Source: Paramecium tetraurelia
Lineage: Eukaryota
Direction: 5' to 3'
Length of the DNA stretch: 64,000 nucleotides
Assembly (NCBI GenBank): GCA_000165425.1
Contig: CT867986.1
Location: 186,001-250,000, forward strand
A program made the position numbers and the translations under genes. Shown piece by piece: positions 40,591 through 57,968 of this stretch. The notes beneath the pieces were generated by a model. It made no database searches. It saw nothing but the letters and a program-made list of their open reading frames with translations, and was not told where the DNA came from. The stretch's first letter is position 1. Every line of letters begins with the position of its first letter.

Positions 40591-41022
40591 TCAGACTAGT
40601 TCTTAGACGCATTCGCATTCAGGATGTCTTTCGAAGAAACCAAAGGCACATTGGAAGTTGCTCAATGAGTTTTGATCAAGGCACTCTTCTTTCAAGACGG
40701 CAGCGCAAGAAGCAACATCACAACCTGATGAGAATTAGAAGGATGGGTAACAATTGGCCACACCGCATTTACTCCTAGGTAAATAGATTATAAAATGATA
40801 CAATGCAATAAGCAATTTATTTCCTGATTTGTTAGCACATTCAATCAAGCAATCGTAATCAGCAGAACATTTGTTTGAACAATTAGTTGCGGCAATAGCA
40901 CAGAAGGCATTCTTCTCACAAGCAGCCACTTCATCTGGGCATTTCTCTCTGACGCACAAATCGACGGGGTCATCTTAAGCAACAGCAAAAGTCAAAAGAA
41001 CAACTAACAAAAATGCTTTCAT
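40591..41022 (-). CDS. Secreted 16-Cys protein, copy A
   Basis: Signal peptide MKAFLLVVLLTFAVA; CVREKCPDEVAACEKNAFCAIAATNCSNKC...FFERHPECECV; one 27-nt intron. Confidence 0.9.
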
Positions 41023-41072
41023 TAAATATAATAATACTTTTGTAAGTATAAGATTGGTTTTATAAAATCCAG

Positions 41073-41079
41073 ATGACGT
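41073..41079 (-). promoter_or_regulatory. ACGTCAT (CRE/bZIP-like) element upstream of copy A
   Basis: ATGACGT on + strand, 51 nt upstream of the ATG; same 7-mer upstream of copy B. Confidence 0.45.
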
Positions 41080-41181
41080 TATTTGGAAATTTGAGAAAAA
41101 CTTTATATGATATTATTACAAATTAATAGATACATGCATAAAATCACATTTTATGCCTATACCCTTGATATTTATACTCCC

Positions 41182-41601
41182 TCAGAACTCACTAACGCAT
41201 GAACATTCTGGATGTCTCTCGAAGAATGATGAAGCACATTAGAAGGATTTCAATCCCAAAGTTTGAGTGCATTCGCTCTGGAAATAAGCAACACATCCTT
41301 CAACATCACAAAATGAAACAGCAACATCTTTGCAATTTTCGTGTCCACATTAAGCCCTTAAAATAGATTATAAAGTATACAATGCAATCAATTTGGCATT
41401 CTTTGAGGCTAAAGCACAGTTCAACATGCATTCAGCGTCTTCACCTCCACATTGGTTTTTGCATTTCATTGCGGCAGAAGCACATCCGAATACTTCCTTT
41501 TAGCAGGCGGCGTATTCATTTGGGCATCTCTCTTTCAAGCATTATTCTGGGTCTGCAGCATATGTGAGGGCAAGGAGAACTACTATAACAATTGCTTTCA
41601 T
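41182..41601 (-). CDS. Secreted 16-Cys protein, copy B (tandem paralog)
   Basis: Signal peptide MKAIVIVVLLALTYA; CLKERCPNEYAACQKEVFGCASAAMKCKNQC...FFERHPECSCV; 24-nt intron at the same position as in copy A. Confidence 0.9.
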
Positions 41602-41661
41602 TTGGTTATTTTATTAATGATATTAAACAATTATTATTACCATCCTTATATAATCATTTTA

Positions 41662-41668
41662 ATGACGT
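41662..41668 (-). promoter_or_regulatory. ACGTCAT (CRE/bZIP-like) element upstream of copy B
   Basis: ATGACGT on + strand, 61 nt upstream of the ATG. Confidence 0.45.
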
Positions 41669-41712
41669 AGATAAAATAAATTGCTAATCAACATATATTA
41701 GTTTTTATCACA

Positions 41713-42361
41713 ATGAATTTTATTTAATTGGGTAAACTAAAAAATCAGTTGGCTAATTCTAAATCAAATATTCCAAAAATCTAATAAAGAAGATACTCCA
41801 GAGTTAATTCCATTGAATAGTTAATTTCTTATCAAAATTATCAAAAAGAAAATTTGGAGTAGATTGATAAATATCCATTTAAAAAGTATTTCTTGATATT
41901 TTAATAGAATTACACAGGATCAATCTTCTCAAATTGATAAACCTGAATAAAAAGAGAGATCCCAATCTCTTACTCATATTCAATAACAATACTAAATTAA
42001 TTCTCACAGACTTATCAATTAATAAAAAATTACAAAAACAACAAATAATATAGAAATCAACTATTCTAAATAAGGAATCTAACTCTTACAAATTCACCAA
42101 AAAAGGTAGAATTTGAATGAAGCTTTAAATTCCATACTTTAATAAAAAATTAACAATTTAAATGCTCGTAATTTTAGATCTAATTCAAATCTACCTGCAC
42201 TAAATTCTTAATAAGGGAAACTATCTGACTAATCCAAAATAAATCAATTCAGAAAATTAAAGTAGTATGATTTTGAATCTCAACTCCCAGAAGGTCCCCA
42301 GCTAAGCTTCAGATAATTCGCCAAAATGTAAGGGTTGAAACTACCCTAATTTTTAGAATGA
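41713..42361 (+). CDS. Hypothetical protein
   Basis: MNFIQLGKLKNQLANS...; likely end YDFESQLPEGPQLSFRQFAKMQGLKLPQFLE-TGA (alternative TGA at 42338). Confidence 0.6.
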
Positions 42362-54208: not shown

Positions 54209-55756
54209 TCAACAAAATTGCAATAATACAATTAGATTAGTCGTTTCTTAAGCCACTCTATCATTTTCATGCATACTGAGGTTACTTAATTAATCCTATA
54301 GTTAATTTGGAATCAGCTTAAGAACTTCCGTTTAATAATGCATATCTTCTATCTACAATACATTTGAAAGGGCCTCTATGAAATACAGTATCTATTCCAC
54401 TTTAATGCTTACTTACTCCAAAGCCTGTTCAATCACTCCAAAGAATTTCTAATAAATATCAATATTGCATTACAATATAAGGTTCTGGATTAAATTATTA
54501 TTATTCTTGTAGTCTAAATTGAATATGCTTTTGGCAATTAATCAGTTTATCTAACACTTTTACTTTATAAATATATGCAAAATTAGACTGAGCATAATAC
54601 TCTACAAATTTATCAAGATATTCCATTAGACATTTTTAGACATACTTGTTGAGAACTTGATCTTCAATTACACAATGCAAATTTGTATAAGTTTTATAAT
54701 AACAAGATACCAATTTTAATAAGTCTTTTCCTGCTTGTTTTTCTAATTTATAGGCCAAATTATATAGTATTTCCATTATGTTATTCTTGCCAATTAGGGG
54801 GAACAACAATTCCGACATTTTCTTAATACAAATCTTCAGTGTCTTTTTAATATATTAGAGTTATTTACTTTAAAAATGACAATGTACTCAAAATGCGAAA
54901 GGTCTTACTCGAGATAATCGACAATGATGTCAGATATAGCATATATTTGTTAAAAAAATGTAAATTCTTATTCGCTTAAGCAATTGGCTAATAGAACTGA
55001 GCCATAAATAATTTAGAGATCCTTAGATTAGATCGCTCTATTCAGTATATCCAAAGTAATATTATATTAATCTTTAATTTTTAATTCTCTTTTGGATTGT
55101 AAATATAAGGATAAAAATTCAGTAAGAGCCATCAAGTATTCATCAGTGGCCAAATCAAATGCCTGATAAACAATTTATTCTAATAATAATTTTTCTTGTT
55201 GTATTATATCTAATAGTTAACTCTCTTGTTCTATTAATAAATTCAGAGTATTTAAAGCATCAACATGCAATGATTTCCATTCTGCAGATTACAAAATTTT
55301 CATCAATTAGAATAATAGGGCTAAATCAAGTTTATCTTTTTCATCTGATAGGATTGTTTTAACAATTTTTGGATTGACTATAATGCAATTTTTCAATAGT
55401 TGTAACATCTTATTGAAATGTGATTGATGATTCAATGGTTAAATGAGATAATATTTAATATCAATAATGAATTAAGAGACTTCATAGTATGCTTCAAATA
55501 AATCTTTTGAGTCAATCAGATTGCAAAATTGATTCAAAGTTTCGATGGTATCAGATTTTAAGAATTCCTATAAGTAATCAAGGATATTTTAATTGGAAGG
55601 GACTTTAGAATCCCCTAATCTATGAATTCCTCTATTTTATCTGAATAGACTCTCCAACTTATTTTTCCTGATGTCCATTCTGAATTTCTCTCTTTTCATT
55701 TGATTTATGCTCACACAATCATTAGCTATGATATTAATCTGAGGAGTGTCTGACAT
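54209..55756 (-). CDS. Divergent importin-alpha-like protein (IBB + ARM-like)
   Basis: N-terminal REKFRMDIRKNKLESLFRQNR resembles an IBB domain; helical repeat body. Confidence 0.65.
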
Positions 55757-55798
55757 AAAAATATAATTTAAAAATATTGCGGCAAATATATTTAAATT

Positions 55799-57416
55799 TC
55801 ATTATGAAAATTATTTCTTCACTCTTTCAAATGTTTTTAATACAATTGATTCCCCATATACTAAAGTCTTGATTTCTTCAAATAGATTTTCACAAACTAA
55901 TGCATATGTAATATTCTCATTAACAACATTATTCTAGTTCAATAAATAAAGGACATATCTTATGGCTCTATCAATCAATTTGTTATTTGTTGGTCGAACA
56001 TAGATCATGATATTACTTTAATATCTACCTATTCTGCCCATCAATAAAGTCGAATGGATATTAATAAGACATTTAAGAACAATATTTTATCCCAAAACAT
56101 CATTAATAGCGTTGATCTTTTCAAAATGTATTCTCTCTAATTAGGGTGACACAAATTCCCAAGACATTTCTAATTTATCTTGGTCATAAGCAATCCTAAA
56201 TTAGTAATGATTCCCTCCAGCATATTTGGTTCTCCTCTCTACTTAGTCTTAACTTATATCATGAGAGAGCACTTGAAATATGATAATGAATTATACATTT
56301 CTCTAATCCAACCTTATGTTAATATTTATGCCAATAGTTTGATGACAAGGCCCTTGGTTATCTACCATATAGTAATGATTCCCAAGCTTATAGAGAGTTA
56401 TTGTATTTTTATTCAGAATCATCCATCACAAAATACGACCAGCTGGGATTGATTGGATTATCTAATATACTTTCAAAAGGATGTAAACTAAAAGTTGGAC
56501 ATCTTAATTATTATTTATACATCTATACCTTTCAGTAGTATCAGTTAAAATGTTAATAGCAATATTAGGCTTAGATCTATAGAATACATATTCTTTCCTC
56601 AAATAGCAATCTGCTTCTAATTCAATGAACTTTGCAATAAATTGATAAGCGTCTATGGATTCATAATATTGTCTAACATTTTTGATTGAATTTGTAGCAT
56701 AATCAATAAAGTTTTCTTTGCATAAAATGGCCAATCCAATTGCATAAGTCAAAACAGTAGAACATTACATTCTTGTACTTCCAGTGATAGCTTAGTGGCC
56801 AACAGAGAGATTTATTTTATTAATATTTGGATTGTTAAAAACATCTTAACTTCTTTAAACTGTCAATACTTCATCTGGATTGCAATATAAGAAAAATGGT
56901 TAGCCCAATTTTACTTGCTTCTTAAGCAGCTCCAATAACCCAAGGGGTTTCTCCTCCTTCTGTCGATGATATTAATAAATCTCCCTCTTTAAAGCCCAAT
57001 TCATTTAATTGCTAAGCTCCAAATTCAGGATGATCTTCAAAATCTTCTACTGATGCTATAATAGCCACGTCCCCTCCAGCCATAAAAGATATTATATTAT
57101 CTTGCTTTGTAATTTATCTATATAAGGTTTCCAATGTTAATGCTAGTCTTCCAGTAGATCCACATCCGCAAATGAATACTCTATTACCTTTAGACCAAGT
57201 ATCCAAGACCATCTGATTCATGTGTGCCAATTAATCCAATTTATTCATCAATACATCGAAAACAAGCATATCCAAGTCTTTCATTCTCTAGATTCCAGTT
57301 TTTAAATCATTTTTGGCAAATTCAGATAAACCAACTGTGTGAGGATGAGCTTATTCAGTTATTAAACCTCCCAAACTAAATTATGCACTAATTTCTAAGA
57401 AATCTTTATAATTCAT
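55799..57416 (-). CDS. MurQ/GCKR-family SIS-domain protein (MurNAc-6-P etherase-like; one apparent +1 frameshift)
   Basis: LITEQAHPHT, RVFICGCGSTGRLA, FMAGGDVAIIASVEDFED, EGGETPWVIG, VGHQAITGSTRMQ, STLLMGRIGRYQSNIMIYVRPTNNKLIDRA; extra base at 56904-56906. Confidence 0.88.
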
Positions 57417-57435
57417 AAACTTTATTTATATAAAA

Positions 57436-57968
57436 TCACAATGAATATTTTTTGAAATTGTCATAACTAACTCCTTTAGGATCGCCTTATGACATTCTGT
57501 TGAATATTGCTAACATATCTGCTTCAGTTAAATGACTATCCTTATAATTCTTCATTAAAAATACAAATTCTAACATAGACTACTTTAAAAGAGATTACCT
57601 TATTAATTCAAAAAGCCATCTTTGTCAGAATCATGTCTTTTAAATATCTTTTGTAAAAATCTATCCGTAGTTTCTTCATTGATATACTTTTCAACTGAAT
57701 TCATAGCATTACAAAATGATTCCTCATTAATCTCATCCTTATAACAATGACTTTTAAATGATTGGGTTATAAGATTTTTGAAATTCTGTTTAGCTTCTCC
57801 ATTTTGATCATTAGGGTAGAATAAGGAACTCACCATTTCTGCAATTAAATCAATTTTAATTCCTAATGAATCCTATTGTTGGAACTCAAAGGCTAGAATT
57901 CTGTAGATTTCCTTATTAGACATCGTCTTAGTTTTATGTGCCTTCTATTTATTTTACTTGCTATCCAT
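57436..57968 (-). CDS. EF-hand calcium-binding protein
   Basis: IFKRHDSDKDGFLN..EF loop plus degenerate EF hands; one intron. Confidence 0.85.

Follow-up and report, generated by a model that had tools for sequence, protein, structure and literature searches.

We investigated a gene on the minus strand at positions 55799-57416 of a 64-kb stretch of Paramecium tetraurelia contig CT867986.1 (64,000 nucleotides analysed as a whole, hereafter the window), which encodes a SIS-domain protein related both to the bacterial etherase MurQ and to glucokinase regulatory protein (GKRP). A sequence-only reading of this DNA had recognized a MurQ/GKRP-type SIS gene with six motifs in order (LITEQAHP, GCGSTGRL, AGGDVAIIASVEDFED, GETPWVIG, TGSTRM and STLLMGRIGRYQSNIMIYVRPTNNKLIDRA), an identification that our analysis supports. 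The gene structure came out differently: the gene had been described as intronless, with a product of ~538 amino acids and a frame disturbed by one additional base that might be real, whereas two introns are spliced out in RNA contigs, the corrected product has 521 amino acids, and the additional base, a G at 56904, is missing from contigs of all four sequencing runs compared. The gene is nuclear, and the organism carrying it belongs to the aurelia group of Paramecium or is closely related to it.

Read with genetic code 6, in which TAA and TAG specify glutamine, the locus falls into three open reading frame (ORF) pieces in two frames (56871-57464, 56426-57004 and 55799-56422). The best match in protein searches, far above all others, is a 521-amino-acid protein of Paramecium pentaurelia (P0003, E 6.5e-166). 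The N-terminal piece, starting from the ATG at 57416 (P0001), is 94% identical to P0003, and the remainder is nearly identical to it except for the middle part, where the single frame followed by the sequence-only reading is the wrong one; P0003 is also continuous across the junction of intron 1. From this comparison, two very short introns and a single extra base were to be expected, giving the following gene model:

55799-57416, minus strand: whole gene, from the ATG at 57416-57414 to the TGA stop at 55801-55799
56529..57416, minus strand: exon 1, codons 1-296 with the last codon split AG/A, covered by RNA contigs X17 and X20; N-terminal helices and SIS domain 1 with GCGSTGRL, GETPWVIG, CNPDE, TGSTRM and TDTTE-R, assigned from Pfam PF22645 and the MurQ alignment
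57131-57129, minus strand: codon of E96, in exon 1
57047-57045, minus strand: codon of E124, in exon 1
56904..56904, minus strand: surplus G in a GGG run, producing an apparent +1 frameshift at codon 171/172 (SKIG/QPFFLYCNP)
56503..56528, minus strand: intron 1, 26 nt, GTATAG...TTAAG, phase 2, within codon 296
56297..56502, minus strand: exon 2, codons 296-365; part of SIS domain 2, with CPTFSLHPFE and WESLLYGRQPRAL
56272..56296, minus strand: intron 2, 25 nt, GTATAA...TCAAG, phase 1, within codon 365
55799..56271, minus strand: exon 3, codons 365-521 and TGA; remainder of SIS domain 2 and C-terminal lid helices, with STLLMGRIGRYQSNIMIYVRPTNNKLIDRAIRY

We aligned contigs of four public sequencing runs (X20, RNA-Seq; X17, presumed RNA; X15; X2) to positions 55700-57520. 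One contig each of X20 and X17 omits the 26 nt at 56503-56528 and the 25 nt at 56272-56296, and both stretches are retained in the X15 and X2 contigs. Base 56904 is missing from one contig of every run, DNA and RNA alike. The 14 best-matching runs each carry 0.96 of the sampled words of the window, and none carries more. As contigs of all four runs lack this base, the surplus G occurs in the window alone and most probably arose as an assembly error in a homopolymer. Removal of 52 bases (the two introns and the surplus G) leaves a coding sequence of 1563 nt, that is, 521 codons, followed by TGA and free of internal stops; excising the G restores a frame colinear with P0003, to which the corrected product is identical at 494 of 521 residues (94.8%). 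The gene is intact, spliced and transcribed. Both introns start with GTA and finish with AAG instead of the TAG with which Paramecium introns usually end. Since the gene has introns, intron absence is unusable as a sign of recent transfer. More generally, frameshift-based findings from the same assembly deserve a read-level check, as other apparent frameshifts may be artefacts.

Two other explanations of the broken frame were discarded. The in-frame TGA at 56426-56428 is neither a recoded codon nor a premature stop, as its frame is not the one translated between the two introns. A frame change brought about by a 40-nt GT..AG intron (~56876-56915) can be set aside because such an intron would remove the conserved CNPDE strand and because a single base is all that separates the RNA contigs from the window at this place. 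Separately, a second contig in X15 and in X2 over 57285-57520, and in X15 also over 57178-57314, was observed; over 57285-57520 it shows 19 differences and 3 gaps, and its differences inside the coding sequence (57315-57405) all fall on third codon positions (9/9). This contig looks like a paralog under purifying selection, possibly a whole-genome-duplication twin.

The composition of the gene is fully ciliate. Its coding sequence has a guanine-plus-cytosine (GC) content of 30.5%, compared with 27.2% for the window (range 22-31%), and 25 in-frame glutamine codons are of the reassigned kind (22 TAA and 3 TAG).

Domain architecture and active site

Family models connected the protein to both MurQ and GKRP. 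The Pfam model of the N-terminal GKRP SIS domain (PF22645, GKRP_SIS_N) matched P0001 with 53.6 bits and P0003 with 51.4 bits (cut-off 27). Among NCBIfam models, only three MurQ models matched P0003 (E 2.9e-40 to 1.8e-30), and the same number of MurQ models matched P0001, each below its cut-off. The MurQ match is split between residues 17-221, covering the SIS domain, and ~431-484, covering the C-terminal helices, with ~210 residues between them; the C-terminal portion (query 431-484), which NCBIfam MurQ models also reach, is encoded by exon 3. Among PDB sequences, the MurQ entry 4s12 matches best (4.2e-22, phmmer), against only 1e-08 to 1e-04 for P0003 compared with vertebrate GKRP. Pfam model PF22198 (GKRP_SIS_2) did not match any of the three named ciliate proteins (P0003, P0051, P0123) at E up to 1, and the lid model PF20741 matched P0003 weakly over residues 450-479 (15.7 bits, cut-off 27.7, E 0.022).

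The predicted structure supplied what these models left between the two MurQ-like segments. An AlphaFold2 model built on a 14-sequence alignment reached a mean predicted local distance difference test score (pLDDT) of 85.6 and a predicted template modelling score (pTM) of 0.89. Foldseek placed glucokinase regulatory proteins at ranks 1-7 (E 1.2e-13 to 2.5e-12, over 573-639 alignment columns), followed by MurQ over 234-293 columns. In VIA-align, human GKRP (4bb9) superposed on the model with Z 31.2 and a root-mean-square deviation (rmsd) of 3.3 over 444 aligned residues, model residues 6-520 running onto residues 6-583 of the chain. Other double-SIS proteins, for example the isomerase domain of GlmS, scored ~Z 21, about 10 Z units below GKRP, and the MurQ structure gave Z 19.5 with rmsd 2.1 over 206 residues (model 15-235). 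The modelled architecture is GKRP-like, with SIS1, SIS2 and a lid in one chain, the layout of two SIS domains plus lid that is given for GKRP in the Figure 1 legend of bioRxiv 10.64898/2026.05.08.723886.

The product thus combines features of two known proteins. As in MurQ, SIS domain 1 and the C-terminal helices align and the positions of Glu 83 and Glu 114 are kept; MurQ, however, has a single SIS domain in ~300 amino acids and forms a homodimer, whereas the ciliate protein has 521 residues and, in the model, two SIS domains, its ~210 extra residues amounting to a second SIS domain in the same chain. Vertebrate GKRP (PDB 4BB9, 3W0L, 4LC9) has the same three parts, SIS1, SIS2 and lid, but is only 14-19% identical to the ciliate protein, which leaves Pfam GKRP_SIS_2 unmatched; a glucokinase-regulating role of the ciliate protein is not expected. 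The designation of the gene as a bacterial-type MurQ therefore stands as far as kinship and the two glutamates are concerned, and does not extend to the architecture, which is that of GKRP.

A check of the catalytic glutamates against E. coli MurQ, suggested by the sequence-only reading, came out positive. In the phmmer alignment to MurQ 4s12, E96 (in TLETL) aligns with the Glu of DASEC and E124 (in SVEDFED) with the first Glu of VEGAED, which are E83 and E114 of E. coli MurQ. None of the 14 aligned ciliate and bacterial sequences deviates at E124, and conservation of E96 reaches at least 90%; in Xenopus GKRP, the first Glu position is occupied by Ala. The second SIS domain contains a motif that is likewise invariant in this alignment, TDTTER.P, which might correspond to the GSTGR loop found in domain 1.

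Relatives in bacteria and ciliates

Searches with the protein uncovered a large family of bacterial proteins of ~516 amino acids in Bacteroidales, Bacteriovoracaceae, Halobacteriovoraceae, Silvanigrella, Verrucomicrobiota and others, all 80 loci that were kept aligning with the Paramecium protein over its full length (query ~1-520) at 37-46% identity. The suggestion of a subfamily longer than MurQ was thereby supported. At least 572 bacterial species genomes from several phyla encode a relative (at least 572 of 588 pattern matches in contigs representing one genome per species), and a profile of eight ciliate-clade sequences retrieved 3676 representatives at E<=0.001, 1800 at <=1e-10 and 544 at <=1e-30 after clustering at 50%. 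The family is unnamed, its members being annotated as 'SIS domain-containing protein'. The bacterial proteins and the window gene are colinear throughout and share invariant motifs (TDTTER.P, EGGET, GSTRMQ and N.KL.DR); the ciliate members differ by extra insertions, the W in GETPW, introns and the ciliate code.

A second bacterial double-SIS family, of ~600 amino acids (590-630; P0240-P0344), emerged from a search with a 330-residue piece meant to shut out the 516-residue family. It is found in Verrucomicrobiae, Armatimonadota and Acidobacteriota, is 35-37% identical to the query, shares the TDTTERSPT motif and branches outside the 516-residue family. Profiles of both bacterial families match vertebrate GKRP (~1e-18 to 1e-16) in one stretch, GKRP residues 30-353, that continues past SIS1, which at the sequence level suggests a single origin for the two-domain layout of the bacterial families and GKRP. 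In Atlas searches, the chordate GKRP cluster ranked 16th for both bacterial-type families, behind bacterial clusters. Neither the profile matches nor the Atlas ranks tell which of the two families is nearer to GKRP.

Among eukaryotes, the named members are proteins of Paramecium pentaurelia, Tetrahymena thermophila (583 amino acids) and Pseudocohnilembus persalinus (595 amino acids), joined by those of Cyclidium porcatum (P0124) and Nyctotherus ovalis (P0346, a cluster mate of P0127). No GKRP of Naegleria, apusomonads or animals appeared among the matches listed in three protein searches and one profile search. Fused and enlarged bacterial forms were also observed: double-SIS proteins joined to a PIG-L deacetylase (799 amino acids; P0232 is a fusion of this kind), to an S1/P1 nuclease (849 and 858), to a DCC1-like domain (646) or to methyltransferase domains (725), among P0231-P0234 and P0238, as well as an 885-residue ORF containing the double-SIS region (L072:4858-7512).

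To place the ciliate proteins, we built trees from rows hand-picked among ~345 proteins and 80 loci. A 70-row set comprised the window protein, 4 named ciliates, 19 unlabelled top matches, 31 named bacterial loci, 9 members of the 600-residue family and 6 MurQs (E. coli and 5 Bacteroidota), and was analyzed with a quick tree; a 50-row set, from which the long-branch rows L077, L079, L080, L042 and P0238 had been removed and others dropped for speed, was analyzed in IQ-TREE under LG+C20 with posterior mean site frequencies (PMSF) and MurQ as the outgroup. The ciliate sequences formed a clade of 9 rows with Shimodaira-Hasegawa-like approximate likelihood ratio test (SH-aLRT) support of 97 in the 70-row tree and 100/99 in the 50-row tree. 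Within it, Paramecium is sister to Cyclidium plus Tetrahymena and Pseudocohnilembus (92/85), a branching order matching the accepted one; the other members are a pair from Nyctotherus (P0346, P0138) and another pair that is unlabelled (P0028/P0061). Small insertions are common to all 8 ciliate-clade members and absent from the bacterial rows. The gene is thus common to ciliates of at least two classes, so any transfer must have been ancient and cannot be specific to Paramecium.

In the 50-row tree, the ciliate clade makes up 20 rows together with sequences of Bacteriovoracaceae, Halobacteriovoraceae and a bacterial group that is unclassified (93/91), and is nested further under branches with 84/85, 92/97 and 92/96 support, with the 600-residue family and MurQ outside; the 70-row tree gives the same picture. 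Forcing the 31 bacterial rows of the 516-residue family into one clade costs 17.05 log-likelihood units (p 0.038 in the approximately unbiased (AU) test). The earlier proposal of horizontal acquisition therefore gains from the nesting within a bacterial family and from the AU test, but the event would be an old one shared by several ciliates. The trees display a position among bacteria; the direction of transfer we infer.

Bacterial genomes carrying the double-SIS gene offer a further indication of its role. None of the five such genomes analyzed (G001-G005, with loci L023, L010, L068, L037 and L013) contains a canonical MurQ scoring over the cut-off, and the best match to the MurQ model in each is the double-SIS gene itself; canonical MurQ is present in 23 of 41 sampled Bacteroidota genomes. 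This pattern suggests that the double-SIS form and MurQ replace each other. Individual neighbors fit the substrates or products of an etherase pathway, each being a single case: a GH20 hexosaminidase is the next gene downstream in Cerasicoccus maritimus (L056:7611-9305), and a D-lactate-dehydrogenase-like protein with flavin adenine dinucleotide (FAD) and iron-sulfur (FeS) features occupies the same position in a Silvanigrella metagenome-assembled genome (L078:5105-8062). A PIG-L deacetylase gene lies 1.6 kb from the double-SIS gene in L007, again a single case. As a separate observation, a stand-alone response-regulator receiver gene stands directly upstream on the same strand at L013:5607-5972, L016:5194-5565 and L042:5574-5972, that is, in 3 of the 5 Bdellovibrionota loci scanned, and is absent in L023 and L078.

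In the window, the gene is flanked on both sides by ordinary ciliate genes in one 64-kb stretch, as judged from 75 scanned ORFs. The neighbors include genes for ribosomal proteins L3 and L6e, two DHHC palmitoyltransferases, CK2 beta, a thioredoxin-domain protein, RCC1, TBCC, protein kinases and enkurin. Elsewhere in the window, two adjacent minus-strand ORFs (40594-41181 and 41185-41763) encode similar small Cys-rich proteins with hydrophobic N-termini, evidently tandem paralogs, and neither matches any Pfam model.

Proposed function, origin and significance

The idea that eukaryotes use an etherase of this kind on the walls of bacterial prey has been put forward before in publications on Naegleria, Entodinium and anaerobic ciliates. 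According to the accessible text of bioRxiv 10.64898/2026.05.08.723886, which cites Veiga-da-Cunha et al. 2009, the Naegleria gruberi homolog of GKRP shows an etherase activity on a par with that of the bacterial enzymes and has a likely role in bacterial cell-wall digestion, and the GKRP of the lancelet was measured as an active etherase. In PMC3613411, the 2009 Veiga-da-Cunha paper is cited only. The Naegleria protein resembles the one described here as a protist member of the MurQ/GKRP superfamily, longer than MurQ, from a bacterivore, with wall digestion as its proposed role; in the available portion of that preprint it is said to be nearer to vertebrate GKRP than to MurQ, whereas the Paramecium protein shows the reverse. 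Transcripts of Entodinium caudatum for an etherase of MurNAc-6-P (N-acetylmuramic acid 6-phosphate), an N-acetylglucosamine (GlcNAc) kinase and an anhydro-GlcNAc kinase were interpreted as use of prey peptidoglycan sugar (PMC6925433), and murQ is listed among lateral-transfer candidates of anaerobic ciliates (PMC13198582). Both accounts share with ours a ciliate gene that is annotated as a MurNAc-6-P etherase and interpreted as serving prey peptidoglycan breakdown and as coming from bacteria, but, in the text accessible, treat neither Paramecium nor the double-SIS architecture. Nyctotherus, an anaerobic ciliate, shares a clade with the window gene. Literature pairing Paramecium with MurNAc, etherase, NamZ or anmK was limited to PMC13198582 in our searches, and those for bacterial GKRP-like proteins returned nothing specific; the preprint 10.64898/2026.05.05.723016 contains the words ciliate, protist, Naegleria and bacteria 0 times.

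Our preferred interpretation, to which we assign a probability of roughly 0.55, is that the gene, intact and expressed, encodes a protein built like GKRP that works in the cytosol as a MurNAc-6-phosphate etherase, derived from the bacterial double-SIS family, acquired before the sampled ciliate classes diverged, and used to exploit the cell-wall sugar of prey. In such an enzyme, the MurQ-type SIS1 would carry both catalytic glutamates, the diverged SIS2 would take the part that the second subunit plays in the MurQ homodimer, and the same chain would also have a lid of helices. Prey peptidoglycan would be cut in the food vacuole; MurNAc or anhydro-MurNAc would reach the cytosol and then be phosphorylated; and the enzyme would strip the D-lactyl ether from MurNAc-6-phosphate, yielding GlcNAc-6-phosphate and D-lactate, both of which would feed amino-sugar catabolism. 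The gene itself would go back to one uptake from the bacterial double-SIS family of ~516 amino acids before the split of Oligohymenophorea and Armophorea, with vertical inheritance since. The substrate, the pathway partners and the cellular location are what we infer here.

Several observations weigh against this interpretation. P0003 scores below every curated MurQ cut-off (138.2 vs 168, 115.1 vs 255 and 106 vs 302), all three of which the E. coli MurQ control passes (515.4, 443.7 and 422.4). Around 14 bacterial loci, 85 neighbor proteins include no conserved operon with a MurNAc kinase, NagA or a transporter, and no amino-sugar or pathway partner gene is found among the 75 ORFs of the 64-kb window. 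The function of the 516-residue family is read from its sequences, and E83 and E114 are residues that we take to be the catalytic pair of MurQ, from work of the Tanner laboratory, a literature search having given no confirmation. As for the origin, the trees leave out the GKRPs of Naegleria, apusomonads and animals; the AU p value is marginal, for a group named after the tree was seen; the branch leading to the MurQ outgroup is very long, at 3.4 changes per column; and the composition of several rows is unusual. A competing, less likely history is one of shared eukaryotic ancestry, in which the bacteria were recipients or more than one exchange took place.

The same architecture might also perform another job, either as a sugar-phosphate-binding regulator like vertebrate GKRP or as a SIS isomerase, deglycase or lyase acting on another phosphosugar, as could be argued from the three failed MurQ cut-offs, from an overall fold closest to non-catalytic human GKRP, from the many SIS proteins at Z ~20-21 that are isomerases or deaminases, and from the lack of a MurNAc operon around the 14 bacterial loci. 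However, both MurQ Glu positions are kept, in contrast to the Ala at the first one in Xenopus GKRP, and no other MurQ is found in any of the five host bacteria of the family. Furthermore, etherase activity is on record for the GKRP-type protein of the lancelet and, through a citation, for that of Naegleria, and glucokinase regulation is reported to have emerged only in jawed vertebrates, according to the accessible text of bioRxiv 10.64898/2026.05.08.723886. We consider such a different activity unlikely, and hold the same opinion of a vertically inherited, pan-eukaryotic GKRP lineage, in which closeness to bacteria would reflect slow evolution or eukaryote-to-bacteria transfer. That history accommodates a fold equal to GKRP over its full length, bacterial-family profiles that both align to GKRP residues 30-353 in one stretch past SIS1, and the age of the gene within ciliates, and it benefits from the omission of eukaryotic GKRPs from the trees and from the marginal AU test. 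It sits poorly with the relatives carried by at least 572 bacterial species genomes from several phyla, with a ciliate clade several branches deep among bacteria, with P0003 being far nearer to MurQ (4.2e-22) than to vertebrate GKRP (1e-08 to 1e-04), with the lack of a PF22198 match in all three named ciliate proteins at E up to 1, and with an Atlas eukaryote cluster that comes 16th, behind bacterial clusters.

Two simpler explanations can be given much less credit. A frameshifted pseudogene would account for the extra base at 56904 that breaks the frame in the window, but this base is missing from contigs of all four runs, RNA included, the protein past the break continues at ~95% identity to P0003 with no stop, and a spliced transcript exists, which makes a pseudogene very improbable. 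Bacterial contamination of the assembly, which the bacterial identity of the nearest non-ciliate relatives might bring to mind, is hardly credible for a gene with two spliced GT..AG introns, 25 in-frame TAA/TAG codons read as Gln, a GC content like that of the window and ciliate genes on both flanks within 64 kb.

For Paramecium, a model organism in which RNA interference through feeding and bacterial diets of defined composition are routine, the etherase interpretation provides a concrete, testable candidate enzyme for using muramic acid from ingested bacteria. For the family, these findings reveal that proteins with the complete GKRP architecture are frequent in bacteria, with relatives in at least 572 species genomes and 544 clusters at 50% (E<=1e-30), and that the ciliate version is much nearer to the bacterial proteins than to vertebrate GKRP, which bears on where the domain duplication took place. 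The position of the ciliate genes among those of predatory bacteria leaves room for a capture separate from the animal GKRP line. Tentatively, and with more doubt than attaches to the etherase function itself, we propose that the two-SIS 'GKRP' architecture arose in bacteria, where it replaced MurQ in lineages including bacterial predators, and was captured more than once by bacterivorous eukaryotes, by ciliates from a Bacteriovoracaceae-like donor and separately by the Naegleria/animal GKRP line. If this is true, the human glucokinase regulator and the ciliate enzyme would be parallel captures of one bacterial prey-wall-digesting enzyme.

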